Source: Dehalococcoidia bacterium (GTDB lineage Bacteria; Chloroflexota; Dehalococcoidia; UBA6926). Taken from it: 64,000 nucleotides of DNA. The notes beneath the pieces were generated by a model. The model had not been told where the DNA came from, ran no database searches, and was given only the letters and a program-made list of their open reading frames with translations. This document shows, one piece after another, positions 2,449-47,412 of this stretch (positions are counted from its first letter, which is position 1; the number at the start of each line of letters is the position of its first letter). The stretch lies in the NCBI GenBank assembly GCA_963665385.1, contig OY762213.1, positions 1,833,211-1,897,210 on the forward strand, read 5' to 3'. Position numbers and translations under genes: made by a program.

Positions 2449-2463
2449 AAAGGACACGCGACC

Positions 2464-7229: not shown

Positions 7230-7319
7230 AGAGATAGTGTAGCGCCTGACTTACCCGCAAGCACCAATCTCGCGTGCGCCATCCTGCTAAACTCAGATAG
7301 AGGAGTGTGACTACTGAGG

Positions 7320-8333
7320 ATGACTTCGGGCCTGTCTGTTGACCTTCCGAGCGGCAAAAAAGGCCGTGTGCTTTCCGGCGCGCGGCCGACCGGTCGTTTG
7401 CATCTGGGAAACTACTTTGGCGCGCTGAAAAACTGGGTGTCCCTGCAGGACGATTACGACTGCTTCTATTTCGTCGCGGACGTACACGCCCTCACGACGG
7501 TCGAAGACACGGTGGGCCTCAAGCAAAACACCCGAGAGATGGTGCTGGATTGGCTTGCGGCTGGACTTGATCCCGATCGCAGCACCCTGTTCATCCAATC
7601 GCGCGTCCCGGAGGTGCTGGAGCTTCACGCGTACTTGAGCATGGTGACGCCGATGGGCTCGCTGCAGCGCGTCCCAAGTTTCAAGGAGCAGTTCCGGGCG
7701 CGGGCCGACAGCATGAATTACGGCCTCGTCGGCTATCCCGTTCTCCAGACGGCGGACATCATCATCTATCTGGCAAACAAGGTTCCCGTGGGCGTGGATC
7801 AGGTTCCGCACGTGGAACTCTCGCGCGAGATTGTGCGGCGGTTTAACGGGCAATTTGGCGAGGTCTTTCCGGAACCGGATGCCCTCCTGTCGGAAACGCC
7901 GAGCATCAAGGGGACGGACGGCGACCAGAAGATGTCCAAGAGCCTGGACAACCACATTGAGTTGGCCGCAACACCGGAAGAGACGGCGCAACGTGTCATG
8001 TCTATGGTGACCGATCCGCAGCGCGCTCGACGAACCGACCCTGGCCGCCCCTGGATCTGCAACGTCTATGCGCTCCACCAGATATTTTCCAATGAAGACT
8101 ATACAAAGACGGTGTATGACCAGTGCACGACGGCGGCCATTGGCTGCGTGGACGACAAGCGCGCGCTTGCGGACGCGATAAACGAGAATCTCCAAGCGTT
8201 TCGGGAGCGGCGAGCCGAACTCGCGACACAACCCAACCTCGTCGAGGATGTACTCGTGGCAGGCACGGAACGGGCGCGGGCCGTTGCCATCCAGACAATA
8301 GAAGAGGTGCGAGATCGTATCGGTTTCTTTTAG
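7320..8333 (+). CDS. trpS: Tryptophan--tRNA ligase
   Basis: 337 aa, class I aaRS. A HIGH-like motif lies in GARPTGRLHLGNYFGA and there is a KMSKS motif (KMSKSLDNHIEL). Confidence 0.92.
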   Translation: MTSGLSVDLPSGKKGRVLSGARPTGRLHLGNYFGALKNWVSLQDDYDCFYFVADVHALTTVEDTVGLKQNTREMVLDWLAAGLDPDRSTLFIQSRVPEVLELHAYLSMVTPMGSLQRVPSFKEQFRARADSMNYGLVGYPVLQTADIIIYLANKVPVGVDQVPHVELSREIVRRFNGQFGEVFPEPDALLSETPSIKGTDGDQKMSKSLDNHIELAATPEETAQRVMSMVTDPQRARRTDPGRPWICNVYALHQIFSNEDYTKTVYDQCTTAAIGCVDDKRALADAINENLQAFRERRAELATQPNLVEDVLVAGTERARAVAIQTIEEVRDRIGFF

Positions 8334-9278: not shown

Positions 9279-10403
9279 CTAGATATCCATCGCCTGTGCG
9301 ACGCGCTCGCGGTGGTAGTCGCCATCACCAAAGGAGACCTCCCATGCCTTGAGGCGTCGCGTGAACAGCTGCAGGTCGTGCTCCTGTGTGAAGCCAATGG
9401 CTCCGTGGCACTGGTGCGCCGTGGCCGCCACACGCTGCGCGGAATCACTGACCCACGCCTTCGCAGAGGAGACCTCGAGGTCGGAGGGCAGGCCCTCGCC
9501 CAGACGCCAGATTGCCTGGTACGTGATGAAGCGGGAGCCATCAACGTCCGTCGCCATGTTCGCGCAATAGTGCTGTATAGCCTGGAACGAGCCGATCGGC
9601 CGACCGAATTGCACGCGGTTCTTCACGTACTCAACGGTCATGTCCAGGACCTCTTGTAGCGCGCCGACCATCTGCGTGCAACGAAGCGCCGCGCCCTTCT
9701 GGAGCAACAGCCGCAGGACGGACCAGCCGTTGCCGGCCTCGCCGAGCACGTTGCCACCGGGAACGGAGACGTTGTTGAACGTCACTTCGCACTGGTTGTC
9801 CGTGGCGATGGTCTTGAGTTTATCGACGGAAACACCGTCGCTCTGAGCATCCACCAACAGCAGTGTGATGCCATCTTCGCCGGAGCCGCCGGTGCGGGCA
9901 GCGACCAGCAGGTAGTCGGCAGCATGAGCGTTTTCGACGAACATCTTTGTGCCATTCAGCGTGTAGCCATCACCCGATGCCGAAGCTTCCAGGTTGATGC
10001 CATTGGCATCGAGGCGAGAATACGGCTCAAGGATGGCCGTGGTCGCGATTAGGTCGCCCGCCGCGATTCGAGGCAGGAACTCCGCCTTCTGCGCGTCCGA
10101 ACCGGCATCAAGGATAGCGACGGTTGTGAGCGCAGTGTTGAAGAACGGGCCTGGCATGACACCATGGCCAACCTCTTCCAAGAGGATACCCAGATCAACC
10201 AGATTCTGGCCGGTGCCGCCGTGTTCCTCGGGAACAATCAGGCCGAGCCATCCAACCTGCGCGATCTTCTGCCACATATCGGCAGTGAATCCGCGGTCAT
10301 CCTCTTCCATGTCCCGGACGAACGTGCGCGGTGTCTCTTGCTCAATGAACTCTCGCGCCATCGACCGTAGCATTTCCTGGTCTTCAGTTAGTCCCAGATC
10401 CAT
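9279..10403 (-). CDS. Acyl-CoA dehydrogenase (canonical family member)
   Basis: About 374 aa from MDLGLTEDQEMLRSMAREF, with a GGAGGGGG RBS upstream. ACAD N-terminal, middle and C-terminal domains are all recognisable. The ORF track's upstream Met is probably spurious. Confidence 0.88.
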   Translation of the reverse strand: MDLGLTEDQEMLRSMAREFIEQETPRTFVRDMEEDDRGFTADMWQKIAQVGWLGLIVPEEHGGTGQNLVDLGILLEEVGHGVMPGPFFNTALTTVAILDAGSDAQKAEFLPRIAAGDLIATTAILEPYSRLDANGINLEASASGDGYTLNGTKMFVENAHAADYLLVAARTGGSGEDGITLLLVDAQSDGVSVDKLKTIATDNQCEVTFNNVSVPGGNVLGEAGNGWSVLRLLLQKGAALRCTQMVGALQEVLDMTVEYVKNRVQFGRPIGSFQAIQHYCANMATDVDGSRFITYQAIWRLGEGLPSDLEVSSAKAWVSDSAQRVAATAHQCHGAIGFTQEHDLQLFTRRLKAWEVSFGDGDYHRERVAQAMDI

Positions 10404-10481
10404 TTCCCCCTCCTGTCTTCCTTTACTCTTTCTTGTGCCCCCCACCAATGCGGGGCTTAGTCTGTGTTCTGTATTCCCTGT

Positions 10482-11699
10482 TTAGCGCGGGAGGCCAAGG
10501 CCTCGCTGCGCAATGATGTTCTTCTGGATCTCTCGCGTGCCGCCACCGATGCTGGTACCGATGCTCTGCCAACCGCGAGCGGGCAGGAAGCCTTCATCCG
10601 GCAGCGGGAAGCGGTCGCCGTTGCCCGGCAACAGGTTCCCGTAGCCGTCCATAATCTGCGAGAGGCCTCGGTAGATGTGCTGGAAAAGCTCATCACCGAA
10701 GAACTTGACCATCGAGGATTCCTTCTGCGGGATCATGCCCTCGCTCTGCATCCAGCCGACGCGGTAGCAGAGGGAGCGCAGCGTCTCCACGCGGACACGC
10801 CACTCGGCGAGGCGATGGCGGATTTCTGCACGAGCGATGGGCGTATCGCCGCCCTCGTCGCGCACCATGCCACACCAGTCAGTAAATTGTTCCAGTGTTC
10901 GGAGCAGCTGAGCCGGGCGGCCGATGTTGGAGCGCTCAAACGAGAGCGTGGTCATTGCGGCGTACCACCCGCGATTCTCTTCACCGATGATATTGTTCGC
11001 CGGTACGCGCCAGTTCTCCATGAACAGCTCATCCCAGCGGTGATTATTCGTGCCGTCCTTAATACCGCGAACCTGGATGCCCGGCATGTAGTTGCCGTCC
11101 TCATCCTTAAGCCGCGCCAGCAGGTACGTTATGCCCCGGTGCTTGGGCGCATCCGGGTCGGTTCGCACGAGGATGTGAATCCAATCGTTTCGATAAGTGC
11201 CCCAGATCTTTTGTCCGCTGACGACATAGTCGTCGCCATCACGGACGGCGCGAGTCTTGAGTCCGGCGAGGTCGGAACCGGCATCCGGCTCGGAGAACCC
11301 TTGCGAGAACTCGATGTCCGCATTCGCGATCTGTGGCAGGAATAGCTGCTTCTGCCATTCCTGTCCATGCACCATGAGCACGGGAGCGACAAGGCCGCCT
11401 CCCAGTGCTGCCGGCGCGTCGTGGTAGGACATAACCTCGCGATACGCAAGCTGCTTCTCAATAGAAGCGTCCTGGCCGCCGTACTCACTCGGCCAGTGCA
11501 TTGTGTACCAGCCCCTATTGACCAGCTTCTTGGCGAATTGGCGTGCAACCTCGTGACCGGCTTCGCGCTCTTCCTCGCTGCCGTGCCACCCGGCGAGGCC
11601 GCCTGTCAGGTCGTAACCGGGATTCTGCCATTCGCTCTTGACGAATTCTTCAGCCTCATCTCGGACGGCCTGCGCCTCTGCCGAAAATCGAAAGTCCAC
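10482..11699 (-). CDS. Acyl-CoA dehydrogenase-fold protein, MDFRF...IIAQRGLGLPR paralog (subfamily A)
   Basis: 405 aa. Starts MDFRFSAEAQ behind an AGGAGG RBS. The ACAD-like core has KESSMVKFFGDE and the protein ends GGGTREIQKNIIAQRGLGLPR. Confidence 0.85.
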   Translation of the reverse strand: MDFRFSAEAQAVRDEAEEFVKSEWQNPGYDLTGGLAGWHGSEEEREAGHEVARQFAKKLVNRGWYTMHWPSEYGGQDASIEKQLAYREVMSYHDAPAALGGGLVAPVLMVHGQEWQKQLFLPQIANADIEFSQGFSEPDAGSDLAGLKTRAVRDGDDYVVSGQKIWGTYRNDWIHILVRTDPDAPKHRGITYLLARLKDEDGNYMPGIQVRGIKDGTNNHRWDELFMENWRVPANNIIGEENRGWYAAMTTLSFERSNIGRPAQLLRTLEQFTDWCGMVRDEGGDTPIARAEIRHRLAEWRVRVETLRSLCYRVGWMQSEGMIPQKESSMVKFFGDELFQHIYRGLSQIMDGYGNLLPGNGDRFPLPDEGFLPARGWQSIGTSIGGGTREIQKNIIAQRGLGLPR

Positions 11700-11749
11700 T
11701 CCCCCCTCCTTTGCTCTACCCCTCTTGTGGAGTTTCCCGTGATTCGTCG

Positions 11750-12952
11750 TTAGCGCGGCAGGCCAAGTCCCCGCTGCGCAATAATCTGTCGCTGAACCTC
11801 AGTAGTGCCGCCGGCGACGCTGAGCGTACCCGACATGAATGCCCGGTTATTCAGGAATCCTTCGTTCGGCATGTCGATGCCCTCCTGCGTCGGCAGCAGA
11901 TTGCCGTACTCCTGGAGGCCACGGGCAAGAGTCTTCATCGTCTTCTGATACTGCACGTCCGCCCAGAGCTTGCTCATGGAGGATTCCTTCTGTGGGATCT
12001 CCCCTCTGCTCTGCATCCAGCCGACGCGGTAGGCAATCATACGCAGGGTCTCAATCTCGATGCGGAGATTCGCCATCTGGTGGCGGAACGGCGCGTCATC
12101 CAGCGGGCTGAAGCCACGTGTGGCCTTCAATTCGCGGACAAACGCGATGTATTCCTCGATTTGGCGCTGCATTGTAGCAGGGGCCTGAATGTTGGAGCGC
12201 TCAAAGGAGAGCGTCGTCATGGCCGTATACCATCCACGGTTTTCCTCACCGAGGATGTAACGGGCGGGAACGCGCCAGTTCTCCATGAATAGCTCATCCC
12301 AGCGATGGCGTCCGAGCGCATCAGGAATCTTTCGTACCTGTACACCCGGCATGAACTCACCGTCCGCGTCCTTTAGAGGTGCGAGGAGGTAGGTGATGCC
12401 ACGGTGCTTGGGGGCATCCGGGTCCGTCCGCACCAGGATGTGAATCCAAGGGTTGCGGTATGTACCCCAGATCTTCTGGCCGCTGATGATATAGTCATCG
12501 CCGTCACGGACGGCGCGTGTCTTGAGAGACCCGAGATCGGAACCCGCATCCGGCTCCGAAAAGCCCTGCGAGAACTCGAGGTCGGCGTTCGCGATACCCG
12601 GCAGAAATTCATCCTGCATCCACTTGGGAGCCGCCAGCATCAGGACTGGAGCAACCAGACCGCCGCCGAGCGATGCAGGCGCCCCGGCGTAGGACATGGC
12701 CTCACGGTAGGCCAGTTGCACCTCAATTGAGGCATCTTGCCCACCAAACTCACTGGGCCAGTGCATTGTCCACCAGCCTTTATTGACGAGCTTCTTCTCA
12801 AACTCGTTGACGGCTTCTTCAGCCTCGTCGACCTGGTGGTGCCAGTTGACGAGGATCTGCATATCCCAATTGCCGGGCTCCCACTCTTTGCGGGTGAATT
12901 CGATGGCGTCTTGCTGTATCTGCTGCGCCTCAGGCGTGAATCGGAAGTCCAT
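11750..12952 (-). CDS. Acyl-CoA dehydrogenase-fold paralog (subfamily A)
   Basis: 400 aa, MDFRFTPEAQ...AGGTTEVQRQIIAQRGLGLPR. It lies in tandem with the previous paralog. Confidence 0.85.
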   Translation of the reverse strand: MDFRFTPEAQQIQQDAIEFTRKEWEPGNWDMQILVNWHHQVDEAEEAVNEFEKKLVNKGWWTMHWPSEFGGQDASIEVQLAYREAMSYAGAPASLGGGLVAPVLMLAAPKWMQDEFLPGIANADLEFSQGFSEPDAGSDLGSLKTRAVRDGDDYIISGQKIWGTYRNPWIHILVRTDPDAPKHRGITYLLAPLKDADGEFMPGVQVRKIPDALGRHRWDELFMENWRVPARYILGEENRGWYTAMTTLSFERSNIQAPATMQRQIEEYIAFVRELKATRGFSPLDDAPFRHQMANLRIEIETLRMIAYRVGWMQSRGEIPQKESSMSKLWADVQYQKTMKTLARGLQEYGNLLPTQEGIDMPNEGFLNNRAFMSGTLSVAGGTTEVQRQIIAQRGLGLPR

Positions 12953-13072
12953 GTGGACAATCCCCCCTCTTGTTTATCCCACAAAGCGCCGCGTGACGAC
13001 CAGCGCGCCGCCTCCCTAACTCAACCCGTGAACGATAGCATGCACGCAATGCGGCGTAAAGCCTTAGGTAGT

Positions 13073-14380: not shown

Positions 14381-15592
14381 CTATCGCGGCAGACCCAAGC
14401 CACGCTGGGCGATGATGTTGGGGCCCAGGGCCAGTCCGCCACCACCGCCAAAGCCTGTCGTCATGGACAACGCGTAGTTCGTGCCGTACTTGCCATCACC
14501 CGGCGCGCGGCTCTCTCCCTTGAGCAGTGCCCGATATGGCCCAATCGCCTTGGCAAGCGCGGGCCAGAAAGTGAACTTGGCTGTCGCAAGCGCACGGTAG
14601 CCGGAGATTGCCCCCTCCGCCTGAGGCACTTCACCGTTCGCCTGCATCCACGCCACGCGATAGGCCAGCATCCGATCGGCCTCCAGCGTGATTCGTGCGT
14701 CGGCAAGGATGTGTCGAATCACATCATCCTTGAGCGGCGATTCGCCGTTGAACGTGATCCCGCGCATCTCTGCAAGGTAGCGATCCAGCACGCCGATAAG
14801 CCGGGCAGCACCGTCAATGCCTGTTCGCTCAAAGTTGAGCGTCGTCATCGCGGCGTACCACCCGCGGTTGACCTCGCCGATGATCTGGTGACGCGGCACA
14901 CGGACTTCGTCCATGAACACCTCGTTCCAGCGACGACGGCCCAGCATGTCATACAGCGGGCGCAGGGTGATGCCGGGCATCTGGTTTCCCTCATCATCCT
15001 TGAGCTGCATGGCCAGATACGTGATACCACGATGCTTGGGTGCTTCCGGATCCGTGCGCACAAGTACGTGGTACCAGTTGGCGAAGTGTGAACCGGACGA
15101 CCATATCTTCTGCCCGGTGACGACAAAATCGTCTCCGTCCTCCACACCGCGCGTCGTCAGCGATGCAAGGTCCGTACCCGCATTGGGCTCGGAGAAGCCC
15201 TGCGCCCAGTTGACGGTATTGTTCTGCATTCCGGTCAGGAAGTTCTCTTTCATCCAGTCCGTGCCGTGGATCATGATTGCCCCGGCGACGTTGGCCTGCG
15301 GCTGTGAGGCGGGAGCGTTGTGGTAGGCCATCTCCTCTGAATAAACGAGTTGGCGTGAGATGGGCGCGTCCTGCCCGCCGTATTCCTCCGGCCACGCCAT
15401 CGTCCACCAGCCCCGCTCAATCAGCTTCTTCTGGAAATCCTCTGCATGATCACGAGCGCCCGGATTATCGAAGTCATACGACCAGACGTTCATCGCGTAG
15501 GCGTCGTAATCCTTGGGGTCCCACTCCGTGGCAAGGAAGTCGCGCAGTTCGGTTCGAAAGGCCTCATCGGCGGGGTTAGTCGAGAAATCCAT
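14381..15592 (-). CDS. Acyl-CoA dehydrogenase-fold paralog (subfamily B, ends GGGGG...PNIIAQRGLGLPR)
   Basis: 403 aa, MDFSTNPADEAFRTELRDF...GFGGGGGLALGPNIIAQRGLGLPR. Confidence 0.85.
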   Translation of the reverse strand: MDFSTNPADEAFRTELRDFLATEWDPKDYDAYAMNVWSYDFDNPGARDHAEDFQKKLIERGWWTMAWPEEYGGQDAPISRQLVYSEEMAYHNAPASQPQANVAGAIMIHGTDWMKENFLTGMQNNTVNWAQGFSEPNAGTDLASLTTRGVEDGDDFVVTGQKIWSSGSHFANWYHVLVRTDPEAPKHRGITYLAMQLKDDEGNQMPGITLRPLYDMLGRRRWNEVFMDEVRVPRHQIIGEVNRGWYAAMTTLNFERTGIDGAARLIGVLDRYLAEMRGITFNGESPLKDDVIRHILADARITLEADRMLAYRVAWMQANGEVPQAEGAISGYRALATAKFTFWPALAKAIGPYRALLKGESRAPGDGKYGTNYALSMTTGFGGGGGLALGPNIIAQRGLGLPR

Positions 15593-15730
15593 CCTGCCTC
15601 CCCTTCATCGTTCAACGATGACTTGGCGACGCTGTCACATCGACGGCACCGCATTCATGCGCGCAATGTAGCACCGCACGAGTGCGCGGTAAAGGCAGAC
15701 GGAGCCCTTCGAACAGGTTGAGGGCGTCCG

Positions 15731-18381: not shown

Positions 18382-19593
18382 TTAGCGAGGGAGTCCTAGT
18401 CCTCGTTGGGCGATGATGTTCGGGCCCAGCAGGATGCCGCCGCCGCCGCCGAATCCCAGCGACAGTGAGATGGCGTTGTACGCGCCATAGTAGCCGTTAT
18501 GGGGCGCCCTGTCCTCGCCACGATTCAGGATGCCGTAGTCTCCGATGATTTTGGCGAGTGTCGGCCAGAAGTGCAGTTTCGCTGTCACCTGGTTGCGATA
18601 GCCTGAGATTGCGCCCTCATGCTGCGGCACATCGCCGCGGGCCTGCATCCATGCCACGCGATTGGCCAGCTGCCTGTCGGCCTCGATGGTGACACGCAGG
18701 TCAGCCAGCTTGTGGCGCACCAACGGGTCCTCCAGGATGGGTTGACCGTTGAACTTTGTATCCCTGAGCAGATCCATGAAACGCTCAAGGATGCCGATGT
18801 GGCGGACGGGGCCCTCCGTGCCTGTGCGCTCAAAGTTCAACGTGGTCATGGCGGCATACCAGCCGCGGTTGACCTCACCGAGCACGTACTTCTTGGGTAC
18901 GCGCACGCCGTCCATAAAGACCTCACACCAGCGCCAGCGCCCCATCATGTCGTACAGGGGACGGAGAGTGAGTCCGTCCGGTCGCGACCCCTGCTCGTCC
19001 TTCAAATTGACGAGCAGATATGTGATGCCGCGGTGCTTGGGTGCCTCCGGGTCAGTGCGGACAAGCACGTGATACCAGTCCGCGAGATGCGCGCCGGACG
19101 ACCATATCTTCTGGCCGGTGATGACGAAATCATCACCATCCTCAACAGCACGCGTCTGGAGAGAAGCGAGATCCGTGCCAGCGTTCGGCTCCGAGAAACC
19201 CTGCGCCCACTCGATGTCGCCGTTGGCCATGCGCGGCAGGAACTCATCCTTCACTTCATCGGAGGCATGGAACATGAGCGCGCCGGTGATGTTGGACTGC
19301 GGTGAGCCGCCCGGCGCGTTGGCGTATGCCAGTTCCTCCTTGTAGATGAACTGCTGGTTAACGGGATAGTCCGTGCCGCCAAATTCCTTTGGCCACGTCA
19401 TCGTGTACCAGCCCTTATCGACAAGCTTCTTCACGAAGTCCTTATCGTTATCGCGGGACTCCTGCATATCGAAGTCCCAGGAGCGGACGGCCATGCTGTG
19501 GCCGTCAAAGCCCTTGTTGTCCCAATTGCTATTGATGAAGTCGCGCACCTCTGCGCGAAACGCCTGATCCTTGGGATCCTCTCGAAAATCCAT
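18382..19593 (-). CDS. Acyl-CoA dehydrogenase-fold paralog (subfamily B)
   Basis: About 403 aa from MDFREDPKDQAFRAEVRDF at 19593, with a GGAGG RBS. It ends GFGGGGGILLGPNIIAQRGLGLPR. The ORF-track upstream extension is probably spurious. Confidence 0.85.
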   Translation of the reverse strand: MDFREDPKDQAFRAEVRDFINSNWDNKGFDGHSMAVRSWDFDMQESRDNDKDFVKKLVDKGWYTMTWPKEFGGTDYPVNQQFIYKEELAYANAPGGSPQSNITGALMFHASDEVKDEFLPRMANGDIEWAQGFSEPNAGTDLASLQTRAVEDGDDFVITGQKIWSSGAHLADWYHVLVRTDPEAPKHRGITYLLVNLKDEQGSRPDGLTLRPLYDMMGRWRWCEVFMDGVRVPKKYVLGEVNRGWYAAMTTLNFERTGTEGPVRHIGILERFMDLLRDTKFNGQPILEDPLVRHKLADLRVTIEADRQLANRVAWMQARGDVPQHEGAISGYRNQVTAKLHFWPTLAKIIGDYGILNRGEDRAPHNGYYGAYNAISLSLGFGGGGGILLGPNIIAQRGLGLPR

Positions 19594-19731
19594 CGAGCGC
19601 CTCCTGCCCCACCCATCGCCCGCGCGATGGCGTTCACCGCGCCAGCCCACGGGTCGGCGACGGTTATCGTTTCAAAGCTAGGCGCACTCTAGCACCGACA
19701 GTGGGCAGGGTAAAGGGGCGGCCAGTCCGCG

Positions 19732-20124
19732 TTACTCGTGGTGCAGGGGTGAGATCTGCGAGTGAGGGTTAGTGGTGCACTCGAATTGGAGGTGCCAGCG
19801 GGCGCGCGCCTCCCAATACGCGGCGCGGTTCAGGGCATCCCGTCGCTGCTCCTGCGTCCAGCCGGCGTAGTCGAAGGATGTCACGTCCTCCGGGCCGTCA
19901 CGGAACCATTCCTGACGCGCCCACCATTCGAGAGGCGTCATCGTGCCGCGCTCATTCTGGCCCGTCAACGCGCGATTGCAGTCCGGGCACGCCTGCACCA
20001 AATTGGCGAGGTGATCGCACCCGCCGCGATCAAGCGGAATCACGTGTTCCCAGTTGGGCTTCGGCCCAAAGTCAGTGAACGGGTCGGCGCAGTACGCGCA
20101 CTGCGCCCATTCGCGCTCCATCAT
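19732..20124 (-). CDS. HNH endonuclease
   Basis: 130 aa with CAYC...WEHVIPLDRGGCDHLANLVQACPDCN, an HNH motif with zinc-binding Cys pairs. It sits in a lower-GC segment. Confidence 0.75.
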   Translation of the reverse strand: MMEREWAQCAYCADPFTDFGPKPNWEHVIPLDRGGCDHLANLVQACPDCNRALTGQNERGTMTPLEWWARQEWFRDGPEDVTSFDYAGWTQEQRRDALNRAAYWEARARWHLQFECTTNPHSQISPLHHE

Positions 20125-20194
20125 GGCAGCTGCCTTCCTCCATCAGCTGGTTGTCACTCGTGATGTGGGACATGCACAAGTTATACCCATCACT

Positions 20195-21253
20195 TCACCA
20201 GGCACCAGCGCATTGGCTGAAAAGCCAGACCGCACCGGCTATCCAAAATGGGATTGAAAGGATGGTTGCACAGATCTCATTGACGTGGATCCCTTGTTTA
20301 GCATCACCCCTGTTAGGCGGCCCGGCTCTGCCCCCAGTACGGCGTTTGTTAAACGCTTCCCGCAGGTCCCCAGGGTCAGGCTCTTCCGGAATCCCCCACA
20401 TTGCCCGCCGCCGCACGGACACAGAGAACGACTCGAATCCTTTTCGAACCGCCTCTTCCATAACCGCATCAAGAAACCCTGCATCACGCGCTGCTCGCAT
20501 TGCCGGATAGCCGCCGCGTCGCGCCATCTCGGAGGCGGCCCCATACTGAATCGCCTCAAACGCTCGTTTCCATGCTTCTGATTCCAATGAGTCAACAGTG
20601 TGGCTTGCGCCAAGCTGGGCGCCAACCGCTGAGGCGGTCATCCCAAGACAATGGACACTCAAATCGACAATGATGGCTTCAGTCACGGACGCTGCTCGTT
20701 CACTTAGGGCATGTCGATACGCGTACCGCGCAGCCTCACTTTCAAGAGCATTCTTTGCGGCCTCTCGAACTGAGCGTGGTTGTCCTGTAAGAAAGCTCTC
20801 ACCTACTAACGCTGACTCCAGCGCGCTTTCATATACTGCGTGCCACAACCCAGTAGGCACGTCTTCAAGACGACCAAGCGATATATGGCTCCGTCTATGT
20901 GGCGTACGTGCCCCGACGTCATACCCGAATCTAAACGCCTCACGCCCCAAAGAGAAAACCACTAAGTCTTTCGCTTTGGTCAACTCCTCCTCAGGAACCG
21001 TAAACGTCTGGTGCATCCGGTCATACGCCGCCCTCTGTTCCTCATCCCGCAGGACCTCGTATGCCTCGTTGATCTCTTGCATCCGATCAACGGCGTCCGG
21101 GCTCTTATTTAGGTCCGGATGGAACTCTCGCGCACGCTCGCGAAATGCCGTGCGAATCTCCTCGAAACTGGCGTCTTCAGTGACGCCTAGTATCTCGTAA
21201 TAGGTCCTGTTCTGGGAGGTCATAAAGAGCTGAAAACGGTAGAACGTCGCCAT
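20195..21253 (-). CDS. J-domain (DnaJ-like) protein with a C-terminal transmembrane anchor
   Basis: The J domain [33 protein letters not shown]...[19 protein letters not shown] carries an HPD motif. The middle about 230 aa is unrecognised and the C-terminus has a hydrophobic helix [19 protein letters not shown]. The true start is probably the internal Met at 21223 ([14 protein letters not shown]). Confidence 0.75.
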
Positions 21254-21297
21254 TTAGGGTACAGCTACCGTGAAAGACGAAGCCAGTAGAGCTTTGT

Positions 21298-21990
21298 CTA
21301 TCCCTTCAGAAAGTTCCAGAGGCGGGATAGTCCGCGCTGTCTATGAGCACGTGTCTCCTGTTCCTCCTCGGCTCCCGCTATGGCACTCGATGTGATACTC
21401 AACGGGGCAATGGCTTCAGTGGCCTTTTGTCCTGACACCGTCTTCATAGACTTGAAGAAGTCGTCAACGCCAATCTCCCCATCTTGAAATCTATGGACTT
21501 CTACCCGCGCTCCCTGCATAGCCCCCTCACGCGCCGCCTCAAAAACGTCCACCCAGATAGACGCCGGTGGCACCCAAGTGGACTTGGCAATCCCTAGTTT
21601 TCTGCCTGTCATGGAGGCCCACAGTCCCAAGTTTAAGGCTGCAAGTTCTGTCGCCATTGACTGAACAATCTTGTCCGGGATTCTGGAATGAAAGTTCTCC
21701 TTAATCTGTTGTCGCAGGCCTTTGTCGGTCAAAAGTTCTGGCAATTCACTGGCCATTGCGTCCGCAACTTTGCTGATACCGTCATTAATGACGACAGATC
21801 GCAGAGCAATGTCGTAAATGGGGAACCAAATGTCATGATTTTTCTCATCCAAGACGGCTCGGCCCGCCGGCGTTCCGCCAGTCTGTAAGTTCATTCCGTG
21901 GGCGTGGCCAGTCGAGAACGCAAATACTCCTAGAGCCGCCACAGCCTGTTGATGCGGCGTTATTTCAGTCTCGTCGCTATACGAAGCCAT
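21298..21990 (-). CDS. Hypothetical protein (231 aa), first gene of the low-GC HNH/J-domain island
   Basis: An ORF from MASYSDETE at 21990. The longer ORF-track version overlaps the upstream gene and is rejected. No recognisable motif, and GC is lower (about 48-52%) than the flanks. Confidence 0.5.
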   Translation of the reverse strand: MASYSDETEITPHQQAVAALGVFAFSTGHAHGMNLQTGGTPAGRAVLDEKNHDIWFPIYDIALRSVVINDGISKVADAMASELPELLTDKGLRQQIKENFHSRIPDKIVQSMATELAALNLGLWASMTGRKLGIAKSTWVPPASIWVDVFEAAREGAMQGARVEVHRFQDGEIGVDDFFKSMKTVSGQKATEAIAPLSITSSAIAGAEEEQETRAHRQRGLSRLWNFLKG

Positions 21991-22028
21991 CTTTCCTCGC
22001 TGCCTATGAATTACCCTTAGTTGTACTC

Positions 22029-23228
22029 CTAGCGCGGCAGCCCCAGTCCCCGCTGCGCGATGATGTTGCGCTGGATCTCCTTGGTGCCGCCCCCGAATGT
22101 GCGCCCTGTCGAAAGGTAGTGGTTCGCGCCGATGTACCCGCCGAGTGGCGACCATCGAGCCGGCCCGCCGGGGATGAGCGTGCCCATGTCCTGCATCAGG
22201 CGCGCGGCGGTGCGGAAAATCCGCTGCGTCGCTTCACCGGCCCAGACGCGGGCAAGTGATCCCTCCGCCTGCGGCATCTCACCTTTCGTCTGCATCCACG
22301 CGACTCGGTATGCGAGCATTCGCCCCAGCTCGATATAGACCCGCAGGTCTGCCATCTCATTTCGCACGATGGGATTTGAGGTGAACGGCTCGCCGTTCAT
22401 GTTCGTCGTCCGCAAGTAGTCGAGAACCTTCTCCCACTCACGGAGCAGGGATGCCGGGATGTCCACCGAAGCGCGCTCGAACGACAGCGTCGTCATGGCG
22501 GCGTACCACCCTCGGTTGAGTTCACCAACAAGATTGCGCGCCGGGATGCGCACGTCCTCAAGGAACCACTCCGACCAGCGTCGGCGTCCCAGCATGTCAT
22601 ACAGCGGCCGCAGGGAGATGCCCGGGGACTCCATGTCAATGAGGAAATAGGAGATGCCGCGATGCTTGGCGGCGTCCGGGTCCGTCCGCACAAGGATGTG
22701 CCCCCACTTGGCGCGGGGGTGATGGGCCGTTGACGTCCATATCTTTTGACCGTTGATCACGTAGTCGTCGCCGTCCGCGACGGCTCGCGTGGTGAGGGAC
22801 CCCAAGTCGGAGCCCGCGTTCGGTTCGGAGAATCCTTGCGCGAATTCAAACTCGCCATTGGCGAGGCGCGGGATGAAATACTCCTTCTGCCAGTCTTGAC
22901 CGTGGATCATGAGGAGAGGCGCGACGAGGCCGCCGCCAAGCGCGGACGGCGCGCCCTGGTAGGCCATCTCCTCGCGATAGACTAACTGCCGCTCAATGCC
23001 GGCGTCCTGTCCGCCAAACTCCTTCGGCCAGTGCATGGTCCACCAACCCTTTTGGACCAGTTTCTGCTCGAATTGGTGTTGGAGTTCGAGGGCGGCGTTG
23101 TCGTCGAGGTGCCATGACGTGTTCATCGTGGAGACGAGGTCATAGCCGCGGTCGTCCCACTCATTCTGGACGAACTCGCGAACCTCCTGCCGGAAGGCCT
23201 CATCCTCAGTAGAGAACCTGAAATCCAT
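22029..23228 (-). CDS. Acyl-CoA dehydrogenase-fold paralog (subfamily A)
   Basis: 399 aa, MDFRFSTEDEAFRQEVREF...FGGGTKEIQRNIIAQRGLGLPR. Confidence 0.85.
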   Translation of the reverse strand: MDFRFSTEDEAFRQEVREFVQNEWDDRGYDLVSTMNTSWHLDDNAALELQHQFEQKLVQKGWWTMHWPKEFGGQDAGIERQLVYREEMAYQGAPSALGGGLVAPLLMIHGQDWQKEYFIPRLANGEFEFAQGFSEPNAGSDLGSLTTRAVADGDDYVINGQKIWTSTAHHPRAKWGHILVRTDPDAAKHRGISYFLIDMESPGISLRPLYDMLGRRRWSEWFLEDVRIPARNLVGELNRGWYAAMTTLSFERASVDIPASLLREWEKVLDYLRTTNMNGEPFTSNPIVRNEMADLRVYIELGRMLAYRVAWMQTKGEMPQAEGSLARVWAGEATQRIFRTAARLMQDMGTLIPGGPARWSPLGGYIGANHYLSTGRTFGGGTKEIQRNIIAQRGLGLPR

Positions 23229-23330
23229 GACCTTTACCCCCTTGCCTCTCCGTCGCCTCGCAACGGTACGCGGTCATGATACAGCGCGCGGGCACAGTGT
23301 GCGTGAGCTATCTCACGTGAAGCACGTCCG

Positions 23331-23858
23331 TTAGCCGTCTTCAGTGGGAAAAGGGTCGTTCACGCTCCTCCGGCCTTGCAGTTCAGTTATCGAGACATCC
23401 GAGAAGGTCTTTCCGTTCCAGAGCGTCTTAACGTATGTCAGCACATCAATGATCTCTTGCCCCGTCAGCTTGTCTCTAAATGCTGGCATTCCGCTCTTGA
23501 AATCAGGCTGACTCGGAATTGCTCCGCCATCCCTCACGATCCGATATAGCAGTCCGTCGGAGTGGTGCCACGTGTGGCCGTCTCCATTCAGGGGTGGGGG
23601 GTTCAGCGTGCCGTCCGCGTTAGCGATTTGCCAGTCTGGATGACCCTGCCCCGCGGCCCCGTGGCACTCGGCGCAGTTTTCGGCGAACGTCTGCATTCCT
23701 GCCTGAATGAGAGTTGCGGAAGATGACTGCGTATCGCTATCCGGCGGGCCTTCCACAAAGCCGGTTGAGCAGCCCGCGCTGACGATGGCAAGAATAATCC
23801 CTACCAGAATTGAGCCCGTCGACATCCTTGCAGGAGTCCTGGGTCTTCTAGTCCACAC
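23331..23858 (-). CDS. Class I c-type cytochrome, probable lipoprotein
   Basis: A single heme-binding CAECHG (CxxCH). The N-terminal signal has Cys (ILAIVSAGCSTG) and there is a distal Met ligand region. The start may be the internal MSTGSIL at 23825. Confidence 0.75.
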   Translation of the reverse strand: MWTRRPRTPARMSTGSILVGIILAIVSAGCSTGFVEGPPDSDTQSSSATLIQAGMQTFAENCAECHGAAGQGHPDWQIANADGTLNPPPLNGDGHTWHHSDGLLYRIVRDGGAIPSQPDFKSGMPAFRDKLTGQEIIDVLTYVKTLWNGKTFSDVSITELQGRRSVNDPFPTEDG

Positions 23859-24017
23859 GGCAAGCGCTAGCTGTCATTGACCCTTTTTGACTTGTTTCTG
23901 TTCCAACTGATGCCGGAATACAAGTACGACGCGCTCATCATACAGCGCGCGGGCGAGGCGTGGGGAACGTCAATCTCGGGCCGGGCGCGTCCGTTAGCCG
24001 TCCTTAGCAGGAAAAGG

Positions 24018-25970
24018 CTATTCCTCCAGCGATCCGTCGGCGCAGAACGGAGCGCCAATTTGCCCATACGGGGGTGTGCTGCTGTAGGAAGAAAAAATCT
24101 GGCTCCTTATAGAGTCCGCTACGCATCCGGTGAGCGAGTTGCCGCCGAGTCTGAGGCGGCGCACGTAGGACATTCCGCTCAGGTCGGGTATGGGGCCGGT
24201 GAACTGATTATTCTGGAGGGTGACGACAATATAGGGCATGTCGCCGAACCAGTCGGGTATGTCGCCAGTCAGCTGGTTGTTTTCCAGAGCGACGGTATGC
24301 ACGAGGTTGGCGTTCTTGAGTTCGTCGGGGATCTTCCCGGTCAACCGGTTGTTCTGCAGGAAAAGACCGCCCAGTGCCTTGATGTTGCCCAACTCAGGAG
24401 GAATACTCCCGCTGAATTTGTTATCTGAAAGATGGAAGTGCTCGGTGTTCAGATTGCCGTATTCCGGAGGGATCGGACCGGTGAACTGGTTGTTGTTCAG
24501 GTGGATCCCCCACGCCTTGGTCAGGTTGCCCAGGCTGGCCGGAACACTTCCCGTCAGCCGGTTGTAGGACACGGACAGGTCAAAGAGGTTCGTCAGGTTG
24601 CCGATTTCGGACGGCACTCCTCCGGTCATGCCGGTTCTTTCGAGATTCAGCGTTACAAGCTCGGTCAGATTGCCTAGCACTGCGGGAATCGTGCCAGTTA
24701 GATTGTCATGGCCAAGTTCCAGGTTGACCACGCGTCGCGGATCACCACCAATTGTGACGCCGTGCCAAGCTCCGAGGGCAGTCTCCGCGTTCCACGTTGC
24801 CAGAGCGTTGCCCGCCGGGTTCAGCACATCCCTGGCCGCCCACAGGGCCCCGCAGTCGGCAACTAGTTCAGGCTTGTCGTCCGGGTTGCGGATGATAACG
24901 CCGTTGTCACACGGGGTCGTGATCTGGATTCGTATGGACTTTCCCGGCCCGCAGTCATCGCCCTCACAGGCATACACCTTTGCCACCCACTTGCCGAAGT
25001 GCGGCACCAGGACGCTGGCACTTGATGCCTTTACGGTTACACCCTCGTTCAGCTGCGTGCCGGGCGCATCCTCACGCCAACGCACCAGGTAGGAGTCCGC
25101 TCCATCTACATCGTCCCAGTCCAGCGACACGTCCAGTGAGCCGACCTCGGTACTTGCCTGCAATGCAGAGGGCTTGGCCGGCGCCAGGTCTACCTGGAAC
25201 ACTTTCAGTTCGCTCTCTCCGCAGTTGTCACCGTCACAAGCCTTCACGCTCACGGTCCACGTGCCGTCACGATCGACCGTAAAAGCCGCACTCGAGGACC
25301 GGACATCCTTCTGGCCGTGAAGCCGTATGTCCCCAATTTTTCGCCAATAGACCGAGTACCGGGTTGCGCCGCCTACGTCGTCCCAGTCCAACGTCACGTC
25401 TAGCGAGGCGGGACTGGTAGTGACCTGGAGCCCTGTGGGTTTGGCCGGGACTGGCTCCAGGATAGGTGTAGGTATCAGTAAAGGTAGCCTTGATATTGGC
25501 TTGGGAGGAGGCTCGGGCGTGGGTGCAGGCGTGGCTACGGGTGTCGATTCGGGCGCTGAGCGAACCGCGATGCGCTTGGCGGCGGGTCTTCCGCAGCCCG
25601 CGTCATTGCAAGCTTGGACCCGCACCACCCATTCGCCGTAATCGTCCACGGCAACTGAGGCCGCGGAAGATCTTATGGTGATCCCTTCGTTCAGCCGGTT
25701 GCCCGGTCCTGCCACCCGCCAGCGCACTCGATATTCCGATGCCCCGTCAACGTCGTTCCAGTCCACCGACACATTCAGCGAGCCGACCGTAGCAGTATCC
25801 TGCAACCCTGTCGGCCTGGCCGGAGGTTGTATTCCTTCCTCAGCCCCGGCGGGATTGTCACTCCAGATCAAGGCCGCGGCGGCGAAAAGGACTAGTAGCA
25901 GCGCGGCAAGGCAATACGGCAGCCATCGGCGCATCAACCTGATGCGTGCGTATGAGACGGGACGACTCAC
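24018..25970 (-). CDS. Secreted/membrane-anchored protein with three fibronectin-III-like repeats and a plant-type leucine-rich-repeat (LRR) domain
   Basis: An N-terminal hydrophobic helix. Three roughly 90-aa repeats (PAKPTGLQ...SLDV(T/S)(L/V)DWDDV(D/G)GA..Y.V.WR...). Then 8-9 tandem 24-aa LRRs of consensus LxxLxLxxNxLTGxIPxxLGNL, and a C-terminal Cys pair. Confidence 0.8.
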   Translation of the reverse strand: MSRPVSYARIRLMRRWLPYCLAALLLVLFAAAALIWSDNPAGAEEGIQPPARPTGLQDTATVGSLNVSVDWNDVDGASEYRVRWRVAGPGNRLNEGITIRSSAASVAVDDYGEWVVRVQACNDAGCGRPAAKRIAVRSAPESTPVATPAPTPEPPPKPISRLPLLIPTPILEPVPAKPTGLQVTTSPASLDVTLDWDDVGGATRYSVYWRKIGDIRLHGQKDVRSSSAAFTVDRDGTWTVSVKACDGDNCGESELKVFQVDLAPAKPSALQASTEVGSLDVSLDWDDVDGADSYLVRWREDAPGTQLNEGVTVKASSASVLVPHFGKWVAKVYACEGDDCGPGKSIRIQITTPCDNGVIIRNPDDKPELVADCGALWAARDVLNPAGNALATWNAETALGAWHGVTIGGDPRRVVNLELGHDNLTGTIPAVLGNLTELVTLNLERTGMTGGVPSEIGNLTNLFDLSVSYNRLTGSVPASLGNLTKAWGIHLNNNQFTGPIPPEYGNLNTEHFHLSDNKFSGSIPPELGNIKALGGLFLQNNRLTGKIPDELKNANLVHTVALENNQLTGDIPDWFGDMPYIVVTLQNNQFTGPIPDLSGMSYVRRLRLGGNSLTGCVADSIRSQIFSSYSSTPPYGQIGAPFCADGSLEE

Positions 25971-28237: not shown

Positions 28238-29443
28238 CTACCGGGGAAGCCCGAGACCACGCTGAGCAATCAGGCCGGGCGCAAGAAGGATGCCACCCCC
28301 GCCCGCGTAGCCCGTCACCATGGACAGCGCGTAGTTCGTGCCGTACATGCCGTTGTCCGGGGAGCGCTTCTCGCCCTGGAGCAGGGCGCGGTAGGGCCCC
28401 ATGATGTGCGCCAGGGCAGGCCAGAAATTGAACTTCGCCATCATTGAGGAGTACAGGTTGGCGATCAGGCTCTCCGACTGCGGCACTTCGCCCTTGGACT
28501 GCAGCCAGATGAGGCGCAGGGAGAGCATGCGTCCGGTCTCAACCCGAATGCGCAGGTCTGCAAGCTGATGGCGGACGTGCGGATCGTTAAGCACCGGTTC
28601 GCCGTTGAACTTGAGGTCCTTCGCCATATCGAGGAACTTCTCCAGCACGGCGACATTTCTCGCGCCCGTGCCGCCCGCGCGCTCAAAGTTGAGCGTGGTC
28701 ATGGCGGCGTACCAGCCACGGTTGACCTCGCCGATGACCTGGCGCTTGGGAACTCGGACCTCATCCATGAAGACCTCATTCCAGCGGCGGCGGCCGAACA
28801 TGTCATAGAGCGGTCGGAGAGTAATTCCGGGCATCTGCGCGCCATCATCGTCCTTCAACTGCATGATCAGGTACGTGATGCCGCGATGCTTGGGCGCGGA
28901 CGGATCCGTGCGCGTTAGGACGTGATACCAGTTGGCGTAGTGGGAGCCGGATGACCAAATCTTCTGGCCGGTGACAACGAAATCATCACCGTCCTCGACA
29001 GCGCGGGTGGTCAAGCTGGCAAGGTCTGTTCCTGCGTTCGGCTCAGAGAACCCCTGCGCCCAGTCAATATCATTCGTGGCCATCTTGGGGAGAAACTCAT
29101 TCTTGATGGACTCTTCGGCGTGGTACATCATCGCGCCGGTGATGTTGGCGCTGGGGCTGCCCTGCGGAGCGCCCGCATAGGCAAGCTCGTCCGCATAGAT
29201 CACCTGCCGGGACAACGGAAGGCCCTGCCCGCCATACTCCTCCGGCCACGCCATCGTCCAGTAGCCCTTCTCAACCAGCTTCTTCTGGAACGCCTTTGCG
29301 TCCTCGCGGTACTCGGCACTGTCAAAGTCATAGCCGAAGACGTTGAGGTCCGTGTTGTAGTCCTTCGCGTCCCATTCGCGTCGCACAAATTCTCGAATTT
29401 CCTGTCGAAATGCCTCATCTTCCGGTGCAAACGTGAAATCCAT
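28238..29443 (-). CDS. Acyl-CoA dehydrogenase-fold paralog (subfamily B)
   Basis: About 401 aa from MDFTFAPEDEAFRQEIREF at 29443. It ends GYAGGGGILLAPGLIAQRGLGLPR. Confidence 0.85.
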   Translation of the reverse strand: MDFTFAPEDEAFRQEIREFVRREWDAKDYNTDLNVFGYDFDSAEYREDAKAFQKKLVEKGYWTMAWPEEYGGQGLPLSRQVIYADELAYAGAPQGSPSANITGAMMYHAEESIKNEFLPKMATNDIDWAQGFSEPNAGTDLASLTTRAVEDGDDFVVTGQKIWSSGSHYANWYHVLTRTDPSAPKHRGITYLIMQLKDDDGAQMPGITLRPLYDMFGRRRWNEVFMDEVRVPKRQVIGEVNRGWYAAMTTLNFERAGGTGARNVAVLEKFLDMAKDLKFNGEPVLNDPHVRHQLADLRIRVETGRMLSLRLIWLQSKGEVPQSESLIANLYSSMMAKFNFWPALAHIMGPYRALLQGEKRSPDNGMYGTNYALSMVTGYAGGGGILLAPGLIAQRGLGLPR

Positions 29444-29666
29444 TGTTGTCTGTCTCCCCACTGGCGCGCGTCCCAAAAGCGCCGTCACTTGCTAACCGCC
29501 TAATGCGAAATCCTACTTGTTCCCAATCGGTGTCAGCATACCACGCGAACCATCGTGAAACGTCAGCGGGAACGGGCGAATATGGGTCGGGCTAGACAGC
29601 GCGCTCACCTACAGATGCTCAGACTATTTGCGGTCTAGTTATCCAGGCGGCTGTGGGGGAGATGGG

Positions 29667-30854
29667 CTACCGCGGAAGGCCGAGCGCCCGCTGCGCGATG
29701 ATGTTCTTTTGCACTTCTCGCGTGCCGCCGCCGATGCTAAGTCCCGTTGCGAGGATGGAGTTCACACCCATGAATCGGCCCGCCGGCGACCATTTGTCCT
29801 CCGGGCGCAGCTGTCCGTAGTCATTTAAGATAGATGCGATTCCCCGGTAGATGCCCTGATGCAGCGTGTCTCCCCACAGCTTGGTCTGAGACGACTCCTT
29901 GACGGGAATTTCCCCTCGCGTCTGCATCCACGCCACTCGATAGGAGATCATGCGCGCCACTTCAATCTGCAGGCGCATGTCGGCCAGGATGTGCCTAACG
30001 CGCACGTCATCAAGCAGCGGCTGCCCGTTCACCCTGGCGTCCCGCGCGTAGTCTATGAACTCCTCAACGGTACGCAGCATCCGCGCGGGACCGCCGATGT
30101 TGGAACGCTCAAACGACAAGTGCGTCATAGTCGCGTACCAGCCGCGGTTAACCTCGCCAACCATGTTGCGCTTGGGCACACGAACCTCATCCATGAAGAC
30201 CTCGCTCCAGCGGCGGCGTCCCAACATGTCATACAACGGACGAAGGATGATGCCCGGGGATTTCATGTCGATGATGAGGTATGTCAGGCCGCGGTGTTTC
30301 GCCGCCTCGGGGTCCGTCCGGACAAGCGCCTGTCCGTAATCGGCCATCTCCGCCATGGACGTCCAAATCTTCTGGCCCGTGACGACGAAATCGTCGCCGT
30401 CTTCCACGGCCCGCGTCTGAACGCTCGCAAGGTCTGAGCCCGCGCCGGGCTCGGACAGCAATCGGCAGAACTCGATCTCGGCGGTGGCGTAATGGGGCAG
30501 TAAGTTGTCGCGGTGCCATTCATTGCCGTGGTACATCAGGACGGGTCCCACGAGGTCACTTGCGCCGGATGAGGGCGCGCCCCAATAGGCCATCTCCTCG
30601 CGGTAAATGAGCTGGCGGGAGATGGGCGCGCCCATTCCACCAAATTGTTCCGGCCAATGCAGTGTCCACCAACCCTTATCGGCCAGTTTGAGCTGCCATT
30701 CCTTGATGAGGTCTATCGCCTCGTGGGTGTGGAGATCATAAGACGCGATGGACGCGCCAACGGAGTCGTAGCCTTTGGGATCCCATTCGGCGTTGACGAA
30801 TTCCCTTACTTCCTGACGAAACGCTTCGTCTTCTTGAGAAAATCGGAAATCCAT
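29667..30854 (-). CDS. Acyl-CoA dehydrogenase-fold paralog (subfamily A)
   Basis: 395 aa, MDFRFSQEDEAFRQEVREF...IGGGTREVQKNIIAQRALGLPR. It lies in tandem with the subfamily B gene downstream. Confidence 0.85.
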   Translation of the reverse strand: MDFRFSQEDEAFRQEVREFVNAEWDPKGYDSVGASIASYDLHTHEAIDLIKEWQLKLADKGWWTLHWPEQFGGMGAPISRQLIYREEMAYWGAPSSGASDLVGPVLMYHGNEWHRDNLLPHYATAEIEFCRLLSEPGAGSDLASVQTRAVEDGDDFVVTGQKIWTSMAEMADYGQALVRTDPEAAKHRGLTYLIIDMKSPGIILRPLYDMLGRRRWSEVFMDEVRVPKRNMVGEVNRGWYATMTHLSFERSNIGGPARMLRTVEEFIDYARDARVNGQPLLDDVRVRHILADMRLQIEVARMISYRVAWMQTRGEIPVKESSQTKLWGDTLHQGIYRGIASILNDYGQLRPEDKWSPAGRFMGVNSILATGLSIGGGTREVQKNIIAQRALGLPR

Positions 30855-30969
30855 TGCCGTTCTCCCCGCTTCTACGTCCCTTGACGCATCGCATTGTGCT
30901 CAGATTCGCCCTGTATCCGACAACTCCCGGCGAAACACGGTCGCATTACCGTGCCGTGCTCGAGTCAGA

Positions 30970-46533: not shown

Positions 46534-46650
46534 AAATTCCTCTTAGATAAGTTGGCCGTCGAACGCCCGTGGCGATACTCGCTCAACTTGGTGCGATGTC
46601 GTGTACTGAGCCCCTGGTCGGGGCGGATACCATTCTGTCCAACAGGACGC

Positions 46651-47013: not shown

Positions 47014-47412
47014 ACTAGGTCTCTCCCTTATCTTCCTGATTCTTCCTGCGATCCCGCCTTACATACGCAAACAGGCCGGGATCTGCTGCCTGCACACGCG
47101 TCGGCCATGGTGATACTCACGGTTGCAGCGCCTACAGGTACTGGAGTGAATGAAAGCCGACTACTAGATGATGAATGTGAGCTAGAGTGCGGTAAAAGAT
47201 TCCCCTGGTTCTTGATTCGGCTCCATTGTATCAGATTTCGCCCCCTGCAGGCGGCAGACCAATACGGGCTTCCCCGTTTCTTGCCCCTTTGCCGCGCTTT
47301 TACTACAGTGAGCGCAGGATTCGAGAAAAGCGAGTACCGAAACGGCACAGGGTTTGACGGCGGATGGTTCACTGCGACCTGCTCACCAGTAGGGCGCATG
47401 GAGGAAAAGGCA

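Follow-up and report, generated by a model that had tools for sequence, protein, structure and literature searches.

A strain-variable two-gene cassette in Dehalococcoidia encoding a tail-anchored class-C J-domain protein and a J-less paralog of its hypervariable middle domain

J-domain proteins determine the substrates of Hsp70 chaperones, and in mitochondria an anchored, active J protein, Pam18, is paired with a paralogous J-like subunit without J activity, Pam16. Here we describe a two-gene accessory cassette found in a Dehalococcoidia bacterium (Chloroflexota), in a strain-variable slot between an acyl-CoA dehydrogenase (ACAD) gene and a gene for an HNH nuclease. It was analysed in a window of 64,000 nucleotides, by which we mean the whole stretch from 1,833,211 to 1,897,210 of contig OY762213.1 (assembly GCA_963665385.1) and to which coordinates refer unless another locus, denoted by an L number, is named. 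One gene encodes a J protein whose J domain is followed by a middle domain, X, and a C-terminal transmembrane (TM) anchor (hereafter J-X-TM, or J-X in other loci); the other, gene A, encodes a paralog of X that has neither J domain nor anchor. Pam18/Pam16 is a conceptual parallel to this pair, but there the pairing is via the J and J-like domains, whereas here it is the non-J domain X that is shared, and the two systems have no homology.

The closest described bacterial counterparts are DjlB and DjlC of Escherichia coli, class-C tail-anchored J proteins that work with HscC and whose J domains are ~23-25% identical to those of DnaJ and CbpA (PMC8215388). Like them, the window J protein has an N-terminal J domain and a C-terminal tail anchor, belongs to a family that occurs as paralogous copies, and is preceded immediately upstream by a gene for a soluble protein of similar size, ~235 aa in ybeR-djlB and ybeU-djlC, where the upstream DUF1266 gene overlaps the J gene by 4 bp (L020; E. 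coli K-12 NC_000913.3, 676711-681663), and gene A here. The two arrangements differ in that YbeU and DjlC are without similarity to each other, whereas A is a paralog of the middle domain of its J protein, and in that the window J domain is 45-52% identical to those of DnaJ and CbpA and is followed by a hypervariable middle domain. Homology of X to DjlC or YbeU was rejected (hhalign probability 0.26% and 0.10%, respectively, with A included in the X profile), Pfam found no DUF1266 in A, and an adjacent specialised Hsp70 was not seen, no called neighbour in any of the syntenic loci having an HSP70 Pfam match. The functional connection of DUF1266 with DjlB/DjlC may merit attention in its own right. 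DjlA, also a membrane-tethered J protein, localises DnaK activity to the inner membrane, but its TM segment is N-terminal and its J domain C-terminal, the reverse of the window J protein, in which the NCBIfam DjlA model matches the J region only (E=2.8e-4, 20.6 bits versus a cutoff of 162).

The J protein and gene A

The J-X-TM gene occupies 20195..21253 on the minus strand and encodes 352 aa from its first ATG; since all homologs begin with MTSxN, its start is probably at 21223, which gives a protein of 342 aa. The J domain (21008..21223, minus; residues 1-72 of the 342-aa form) has an intact HPD motif, visible as FHPD, and is identified both by Pfam (DnaJ, PF00226, E=1.4e-22, residues 17-78) and by Foldseek, in which every match of the J protein in the PDB is limited to this domain and the J domains of CbpA and DnaJ are matched with template modelling (TM) scores of 0.86-0.89 normalised to target and the 45-52% identity given above, 5nro_B, a J domain bound to DnaK, being among them. 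X follows at 20396..21007 (minus; residues 73-276) as a hypervariable, all-alpha module in the predicted structure, and is succeeded at 20198..20395 (minus) by a basic disordered linker (residues 277-313) and the tail-anchor helix (residues 314-341). The single strong hydrophobic segment has a Kyte-Doolittle 19-residue mean of 2.0 at 317-335 of 342, and the AlphaFold2 (AF2) model, with a predicted local distance difference test score (pLDDT) of 83 and a predicted TM-score (pTM) of 0.73, places the J domain at 8-74, X at 78-276, disordered basic linker with pLDDT <50 at 297-313 and a helix at 314-341. The window allele ends 1-3 residues past the anchor and has no ectodomain.

Pfam reports PF00226 alone, the G/F region, zinc finger and C-terminal domains of DnaJ are absent according to Pfam and NCBIfam, and the NCBIfam DnaJ models match only ~residues 14-85, far under their cutoffs. 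With its intact HPD, the J protein is hence a class-C (type III) tail-anchored J-domain protein of a new family, in which a J domain of the DnaJ/CbpA type and X are cytoplasmic and the anchor is C-terminal. Both the bona fide J domain with HPD and the C-terminal TM anchor had been noticed in an earlier, sequence-only reading of this DNA and hold up in these analyses.

Gene A (21298..21990, minus) encodes a soluble protein of 230 aa without a TM segment by Kyte-Doolittle analysis, consisting of an X domain alone. Its ATG lies 38 bp past the upstream ACAD stop codon and is preceded by a gaggaaag motif resembling a ribosome-binding site. A mechanically called open reading frame (ORF) of 285 aa at 21298-22155 (minus) extends upstream into the 3' part of the ACAD gene, read in another frame; this extension is an artefact, the true start of gene A being 21990, and the conserved ACAD tail of L001 yields the same out-of-frame peptide. 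The sequence-only reading had listed an unrecognised protein of 231 aa at this position. The gene is real and has no Pfam match, but the length is 230 aa and the relationship to the J protein was missed: A and the J protein are similar in BLASTP (E=4e-6 over 157 aa), and in a nine-sequence alignment A is collinear over ~200 residues with the region that follows the J domain, with invariant X residues at G21, G28, W55, A62-L63-S65, L121-G122, A125, G129, L132-G133, W146, E151-A152 and D170. By sequence, therefore, the product of gene A is a paralog of X.

The AF2 model of A is all-alpha, with eight helices (pLDDT 84, pTM 0.80). Structure prediction, proposed as a check in the sequence-only reading, thus gave all-alpha models for both A and X, and neither matched a known fold: Foldseek of X against the PDB and BFVD returned best E values of 0.36-1.2 with TM-scores <0.3, and an X profile gave only scattered noise against PDB sequences and Pfam. 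A Pfam match of X to CCDC117, under cutoff and confined to one member, was discarded. Searches with PADLOC, NCBIfam and PHROGs left A unrecognised and, in the J protein, recognised the J domain alone. X is an orphan domain of ~200 residues, with an all-alpha fold predicted with confidence.

The ACAD-HNH slot and its occupants

In the window, two ACAD genes enclose the co-directional HNH, J-X-TM and A genes, as the sequence-only reading had it; all three are on the minus strand. The upstream ACAD paralog (22029..23228, minus; Pfam ACAD N, M and C domains) is the conserved left anchor of the slot and the downstream one (18382..19650, likely start 19593, minus; full ACAD by Pfam) its right anchor. 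At the left junction (21991..22028, minus) a 38-bp spacer follows the upstream ACAD stop codon, and at the right junction (20125..20194, minus) 70 bp separate the stop of the J gene from the start of the HNH gene. The order TPP (thiamine pyrophosphate) enzyme, cytochrome c, ACAD, slot, ACAD, ABC (ATP-binding cassette) binding protein is common to the window and to L006, L007 and L008. Across all syntenic loci the upstream ACAD is 91-96% identical; the downstream ACAD is 99.5% identical to its ortholog in L004, a near-identical relative, and 93-95% to those in L006, L007, L008 and L011.

What lies in the slot varies from strain to strain. Three contigs with an empty site (1.7-1.9 Mb; one marked circular, two linear) were compared. 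L006 and L008 carry the HNH gene only, with the ACAD stop 38 bp from the HNH start in L006, and L007 carries HNH and a HicB-like gene. L004, L012 and L013 have ACAD followed by an A-like gene and a J gene, as in the window, the A of L013 being 28% identical to that of the window. Other combinations are an X-only gene (215 aa) with HNH in L016; J-X with X-only in L019; a J-X gene with a dead HPD, a second J-X and HNH in L021/22; X-only, J-X, HNH and a HicB-like gene in L023/24; and, in L011, J-X (325 aa) and four tandem HicB-like genes with neither A nor HNH. Every ACAD-linked X-family gene found is directly downstream of the upstream-ACAD ortholog. Alignment of filled and empty junctions showed no target duplication and no terminal repeat, and at the right junction similarity to the empty sites is lost until just a few bases ahead of the HNH ATG. 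A and J-X-TM are thus a two-gene accessory cassette in a strain-variable ACAD-HNH slot.

Of the features of an integrative island, the window shows presence/absence polymorphism and atypical composition, and lacks an integrase, a tRNA, flanking repeats and a target duplication: a repeat search found none around the slot besides the ACAD paralogy, and an Rfam scan of the window had no match of any kind, hence no tRNA and no structured RNA match in the spacers. Only the L001 copy is in a classical island, with a tRNA (2092-2164), a serine recombinase (2098-3753), GmrSD, two DndB genes, UvrD and, on either side of the copy, direct repeats of ~500 bp (7067-7565 and 10995-11415, 78-85% identical, without an Rfam match). 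There, and in L002 and L003, a transposed segment has the order upstream-ACAD remnant, A, J, HNH pseudogene. In L001 the ACAD remnant comprises residues 185-216 and 355-399, the latter 98% identical, and A (230 aa) and J (428 aa) are intact though the HNH and ACAD flanks are pseudogenes.

The HNH gene (19732..20124, minus) lies outside the cassette and is its resident neighbour and the commonest occupant of the slot. Its product is, as first described, a nuclease of 130 aa with zinc-binding Cys pairs (CAYC...CPDC), which belongs to the HNH superfamily (PF01844, E=2.3e-8, 34.5 bits versus a cutoff of 21.4; PF14279, 29.1 bits versus 27.5). The sequence-only reading had joined it to A and the J protein in one unit, and on that view the three genes would form a defence or abortive-infection system, with HNH as the effector and with the membrane J protein and A as the infection sensors that control it. 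In keeping with this, orthologs of this HNH gene have X-family genes immediately upstream in six or more distinct loci (the window, L004, L016, L021/22, L023/24 and the decayed L001), one copy is in a defence-type island, and the HNH protein has weak PADLOC matches to mREase_IV and PtuB models (E 9e-5 to 4e-2). It shares with Septu PtuB and type IV restriction HNH proteins the beta-beta-alpha-metal motif with CxxC pairs, but the matches cover only the generic motif of ~45 residues (best for PtuB, E=1e-3 over 45 residues of a 223-position model), and it differs from Septu in its length of 130 aa, in having no PtuA-type ATPase adjacent and in being a conserved resident of the ACAD locus. Moreover, the same site holds HNH but neither A nor J in L006, L007 and L008, and L011 has J-X without HNH. 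Because HNH stands alone in these three genomes, has a host-like GC content at third codon positions (GC3, 0.81), a low ratio of nonsynonymous to synonymous substitution rates (dN/dS 0.04-0.06, like the 0.01-0.06 of the ACADs) and a 90%-identity cluster of 56 members spread over many Mb-scale contigs, it is a resident gene and not a cassette component. In L001 it is a pseudogene with at least three in-frame stops in its first 70 codons beside intact A and J, and hence A and J are kept as a unit while HNH is dispensable. The empty-site genomes and the L001 pseudogene largely refute a three-gene system, which we consider quite improbable, and the HNH gene should not be annotated as a system member with A and J.

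Base composition gives the same boundary. A GC content of 47-53% had been stated for 19.7-22.0 kb; the value measured is 56.5%, against 60.2% for the whole window, with a minimum of 51% in 400-bp windows. Values of 51-58% are confined to 20.2-22.0 kb, the lowest 1.8-kb stretch of the window, which spans two genes (A and J) and not three, the HNH part (19.6-20.2 kb) having 64-67%. GC3 is likewise atypical in A (0.57) and J (0.56) and host-like in HNH (0.81), compared to 0.75-0.81 in three ACAD genes (0.77-0.81 in the flanking two) and 0.64-0.70 in the remaining neighbours. As low GC3 (0.42-0.58) is common to almost all X-family genes in all strains, it is a property of the family and not a mark of recent foreign origin. 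No X-family relative was confirmed in IMG/VR or among GenBank phages, where the sole match had 26% coverage and E=9e-3, and none was found in PLSDB plasmids; a low-GC island derived from a phage or plasmid was discarded on these grounds together with the family-wide GC3. Of the horizontally acquired module first proposed, the accessory insertion and the odd composition of A and J remain, while HNH falls outside it and phage or plasmid relatives are lacking; altogether, the observations of the sequence-only reading are partly confirmed and its interpretation partly supported.

The HicB-like genes of the slot raise another possibility, that the cassette is a selfish, toxin-antitoxin-like or parasitic element, one X protein doing damage at the membrane and the other neutralising it, that persists by recombination into a hotspot also collecting HicB-like antitoxin genes. 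Such genes in the slot, four of them in tandem in L011, the tight spacing of the two genes, their presence/absence polymorphism and the copy on an island with a recombinase are consistent with this. Yet alleles of A and X(J) are not inherited together in cognate pairs, solo X genes exist (L011, L016) and no toxin-like domain is recognisable, so that we regard an addiction-type cassette as very unlikely. We know of no precedent for a J domain in toxin-antitoxin systems. The four HicB-like antitoxin-type paralogs of L011 (8973-11066) are of 128-166 aa, and no HicA is visible there.

Allele exchange and selection

In a comparison of nine alleles, X is 28-45% identical (except for 78% between L004 and L001 and 73% between L014 and L017), the J domain 62-90% and the upstream ACAD 91-96%. 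Between the window and L004, nucleotide identity is mostly 81-99% per 100-bp block in the upstream ACAD, mostly 73-87% in gene A outside indel blocks, reaching 99% at its 3' end, and 80-89% in the J-domain coding part; it falls to around 45% (41-56%) from 20998 to 20150, that is, across X, linker and anchor (allele-replacement tract 20150..20998, minus), and returns to 95-100% in HNH and the downstream ACAD. The pattern indicates that recombination exchanges X alleles, one breakpoint being at the J/X boundary and another immediately ahead of HNH; cassette swaps probably use the HNH gene and the conserved J-domain sequence as their homology arms. Diversification of the type brought about by diversity-generating retroelements was rejected for want of a repeat pair, as the X region has no nucleotide repeat in 17-25 kb; no reverse-transcriptase family occurs among the Pfam-annotated neighbours in syntenic loci, to which the window ORFs at 15-27 kb were matched, not all of them having been scanned with Pfam.

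Gene A is under purifying, though relaxed, selection, with dN/dS of 0.23-0.29, and the J domain has a dN/dS of ~0.1 (L004 left out because of a frameshift). These values below 1, together with ORFs intact in more than 10 divergent alleles and confident AF2 folds, identify A and J as real genes. They bear directly on a contrary explanation, according to which A and J are functionless, decaying, lineage-specific ORFs under relaxed constraint in a recombination hotspot, an explanation that would accommodate the low GC3 (0.42-0.58) of nearly all alleles, the L004 frameshift, the losses of HPD and the frequent absence of the cassette from the slot. Besides dN/dS well below 1, however, it has to contend with long ORFs kept in more than 10 alleles only 28-45% identical, with the invariant core residues and confident folds, and with L001, where A and J are intact while both flanks have decayed. 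We give it a very slight chance.

The frameshift itself, at ~8870-8875 of L004 and also in L005 and L012, changes gaagacgcc to gaagagcc, with ~405 further codons open. The L004 lineage may either have a recent pseudogene or express the gene by reinitiation or frameshifting.

Family distribution and possible roles

The family is rare. Of the 90%-identity clusters in a set of 5.8 billion proteins, five belong to A and four to the J protein outside its J domain, each with 1-2 members, and an exhaustive HMMER profile search with X found 25 clusters in 1.84 billion representatives, in most of which X is at ~residues 73-275, after a 72-residue J domain. GTDB species representatives contain only three loci, all in metagenome-assembled genomes of Chloroflexota/Dehalococcoidia, and JGI metagenomes one short contig (L012, accession set MKWU01). 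MKWU00000000 is a metagenome of the sponge Aplysina aerophoba (PMC5099237, PMC5649159), and L004 comes from a bin named 'APA_bin_32'. X is a lineage- and locus-specific family, and at least some members of its Dehalococcoidia host clade are sponge-associated.

C-termini after the TM segment differ within the family: none in the tail-anchored window allele, and elsewhere a ~100-aa four-Cys domain, a CAP domain (PF00188, E=1.5e-18) or several extra TM helices. The CAP-bearing J-X genes (L014, L017) are located elsewhere than the slot, with IS1595, TnpB, methyltransferase and LRR (leucine-rich repeat)-trypsin neighbours and no X-only partner detected. In L014 the region also has split N6/N4 methyltransferase genes with the IS1595 transposase and, 2.5 kb upstream of J-X, an unrelated HNH gene of 130 aa (1272-1664), 27% identical to the window HNH over the motif only.

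These ectodomains raise the prospect not of anti-phage immunity but of an envelope or host-interaction device, in which J-X-TM couples a variable extracytoplasmic domain to cytoplasmic DnaK for surface-protein biogenesis, quality control or signalling in a sponge symbiont, with host or niche driving the variability. The differing Cys-rich, CAP and multiple-TM C-termini fit this, as do eukaryote-like repeat neighbours (FN3 (fibronectin type III)/LRR in the window, Kelch in L007 and L023, LRR-trypsin in L017) and the origin of L012 and L004. The window allele is without an ectodomain, however, the hypervariable part is the cytoplasmic X and not only the ectodomain, and the slot has no secretion or envelope gene; we consider the device unlikely.

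The ORFs at 15-27 kb of the window encode ACADs, the ABC binding protein, a DUF1761 homolog, cytochrome c, an LRR protein and the TPP enzyme. Nine ACAD paralogs in 64 kb (9282-10481, 10485-11798, 11753-12973, 14384-15604, 18385-19671, 22032-23273, 28241-29491, 29670-30899 and 46519-48627) represent a very dense paralog expansion. The LRR protein, of 650 aa with FN3 and leucine-rich repeats, is encoded at 24018-25970 (minus) between the TPP enzyme and cytochrome c genes, and its gene is missing from the syntenic loci L004, L006 and L008. A ~90-bp repeat past the cytochrome c stop recurs past the LRR gene stop (23268-23354 and 23929-24017, 85-92% identity). This gene for a eukaryote-like repeat protein seems to be a second insertion that is strain-specific. 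Since no sigma-70-like promoter or intrinsic terminator was found in 19.4-22.3 kb, co-transcription of the cassette with the ACAD genes is possible.

Our preferred reading, held with moderate confidence, is that J-X-TM is a new tail-anchored class-C J family that tethers DnaK to the membrane via a fast-diversifying adaptor and is probably conflict-related. The tail anchor would hold the J protein on the membrane, facing the cytoplasm, its J domain would recruit and activate the housekeeping Hsp70 DnaK, and X would be the specificity module that chooses the substrates of DnaK. A, being J-less, would associate or compete with X or at the target of X, in the role of a subunit that presents clients or modulates, and the paralogs with a dead J domain would likewise modulate or share target binding. 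The fast turnover of X, the presence/absence polymorphism, recurrent duplication and decay, and the copy in a defence-type island suggest a role in genetic conflict (with phage or mobile elements) or in host interaction and not in housekeeping.

Several observations pull the other way. The window neighbours are metabolic and not defence genes, and neither A nor the J protein has a match in PADLOC-DB v2 with E<=1, leaving the defence system of the sequence-only reading without a signal. The HPD is lost in the family members P0033, P0035, P0038 and P0039, and the L004 lineage has a 1-bp deletion at J-domain codon ~21 in three independent assemblies; together these indicate that J activity is dispensable in some strains. 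J-X occurs without A in L011, L014 and L017 and X-only without J-X in L016, and hence neither partner is obligatory. The genealogies of A and X(J) disagree, the window and L004 being close in A and 40% identical in X, and L004 and L001 78% identical in X and 65% in A; the alleles have therefore been reshuffled by recombination, and such independent shuffling argues against tight allele-specific pairing of A with X. Relaxed constraint, finally, would also give low GC3 and raised dN/dS.

A bolder form of the adaptor reading, which we think improbable, is an undescribed Hsp70 conflict system in which a constant J domain with a shuffled recognition domain captures fast-evolving phage or host proteins for DnaK. 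The captured proteins would be handed to DnaK at the membrane for unfolding or sequestration, and J-less X paralogs would be decoys or co-receptors. The only case to emerge from a literature search on defence systems with J domains was the host DnaJ used by bNACHT25.

To our knowledge, no J family has been described in which a constant J domain goes with a hypervariable specificity domain that near-identical genomes exchange as a cassette. With its clean series of presence/absence states and allele swaps, the ACAD-HNH slot of these uncultured Dehalococcoidia offers a natural experiment. A constant J domain with a swapped hypervariable domain is a pattern typical of immune and conflict receptors and, if true, would suggest that Hsp70 is aimed at fast-evolving targets.

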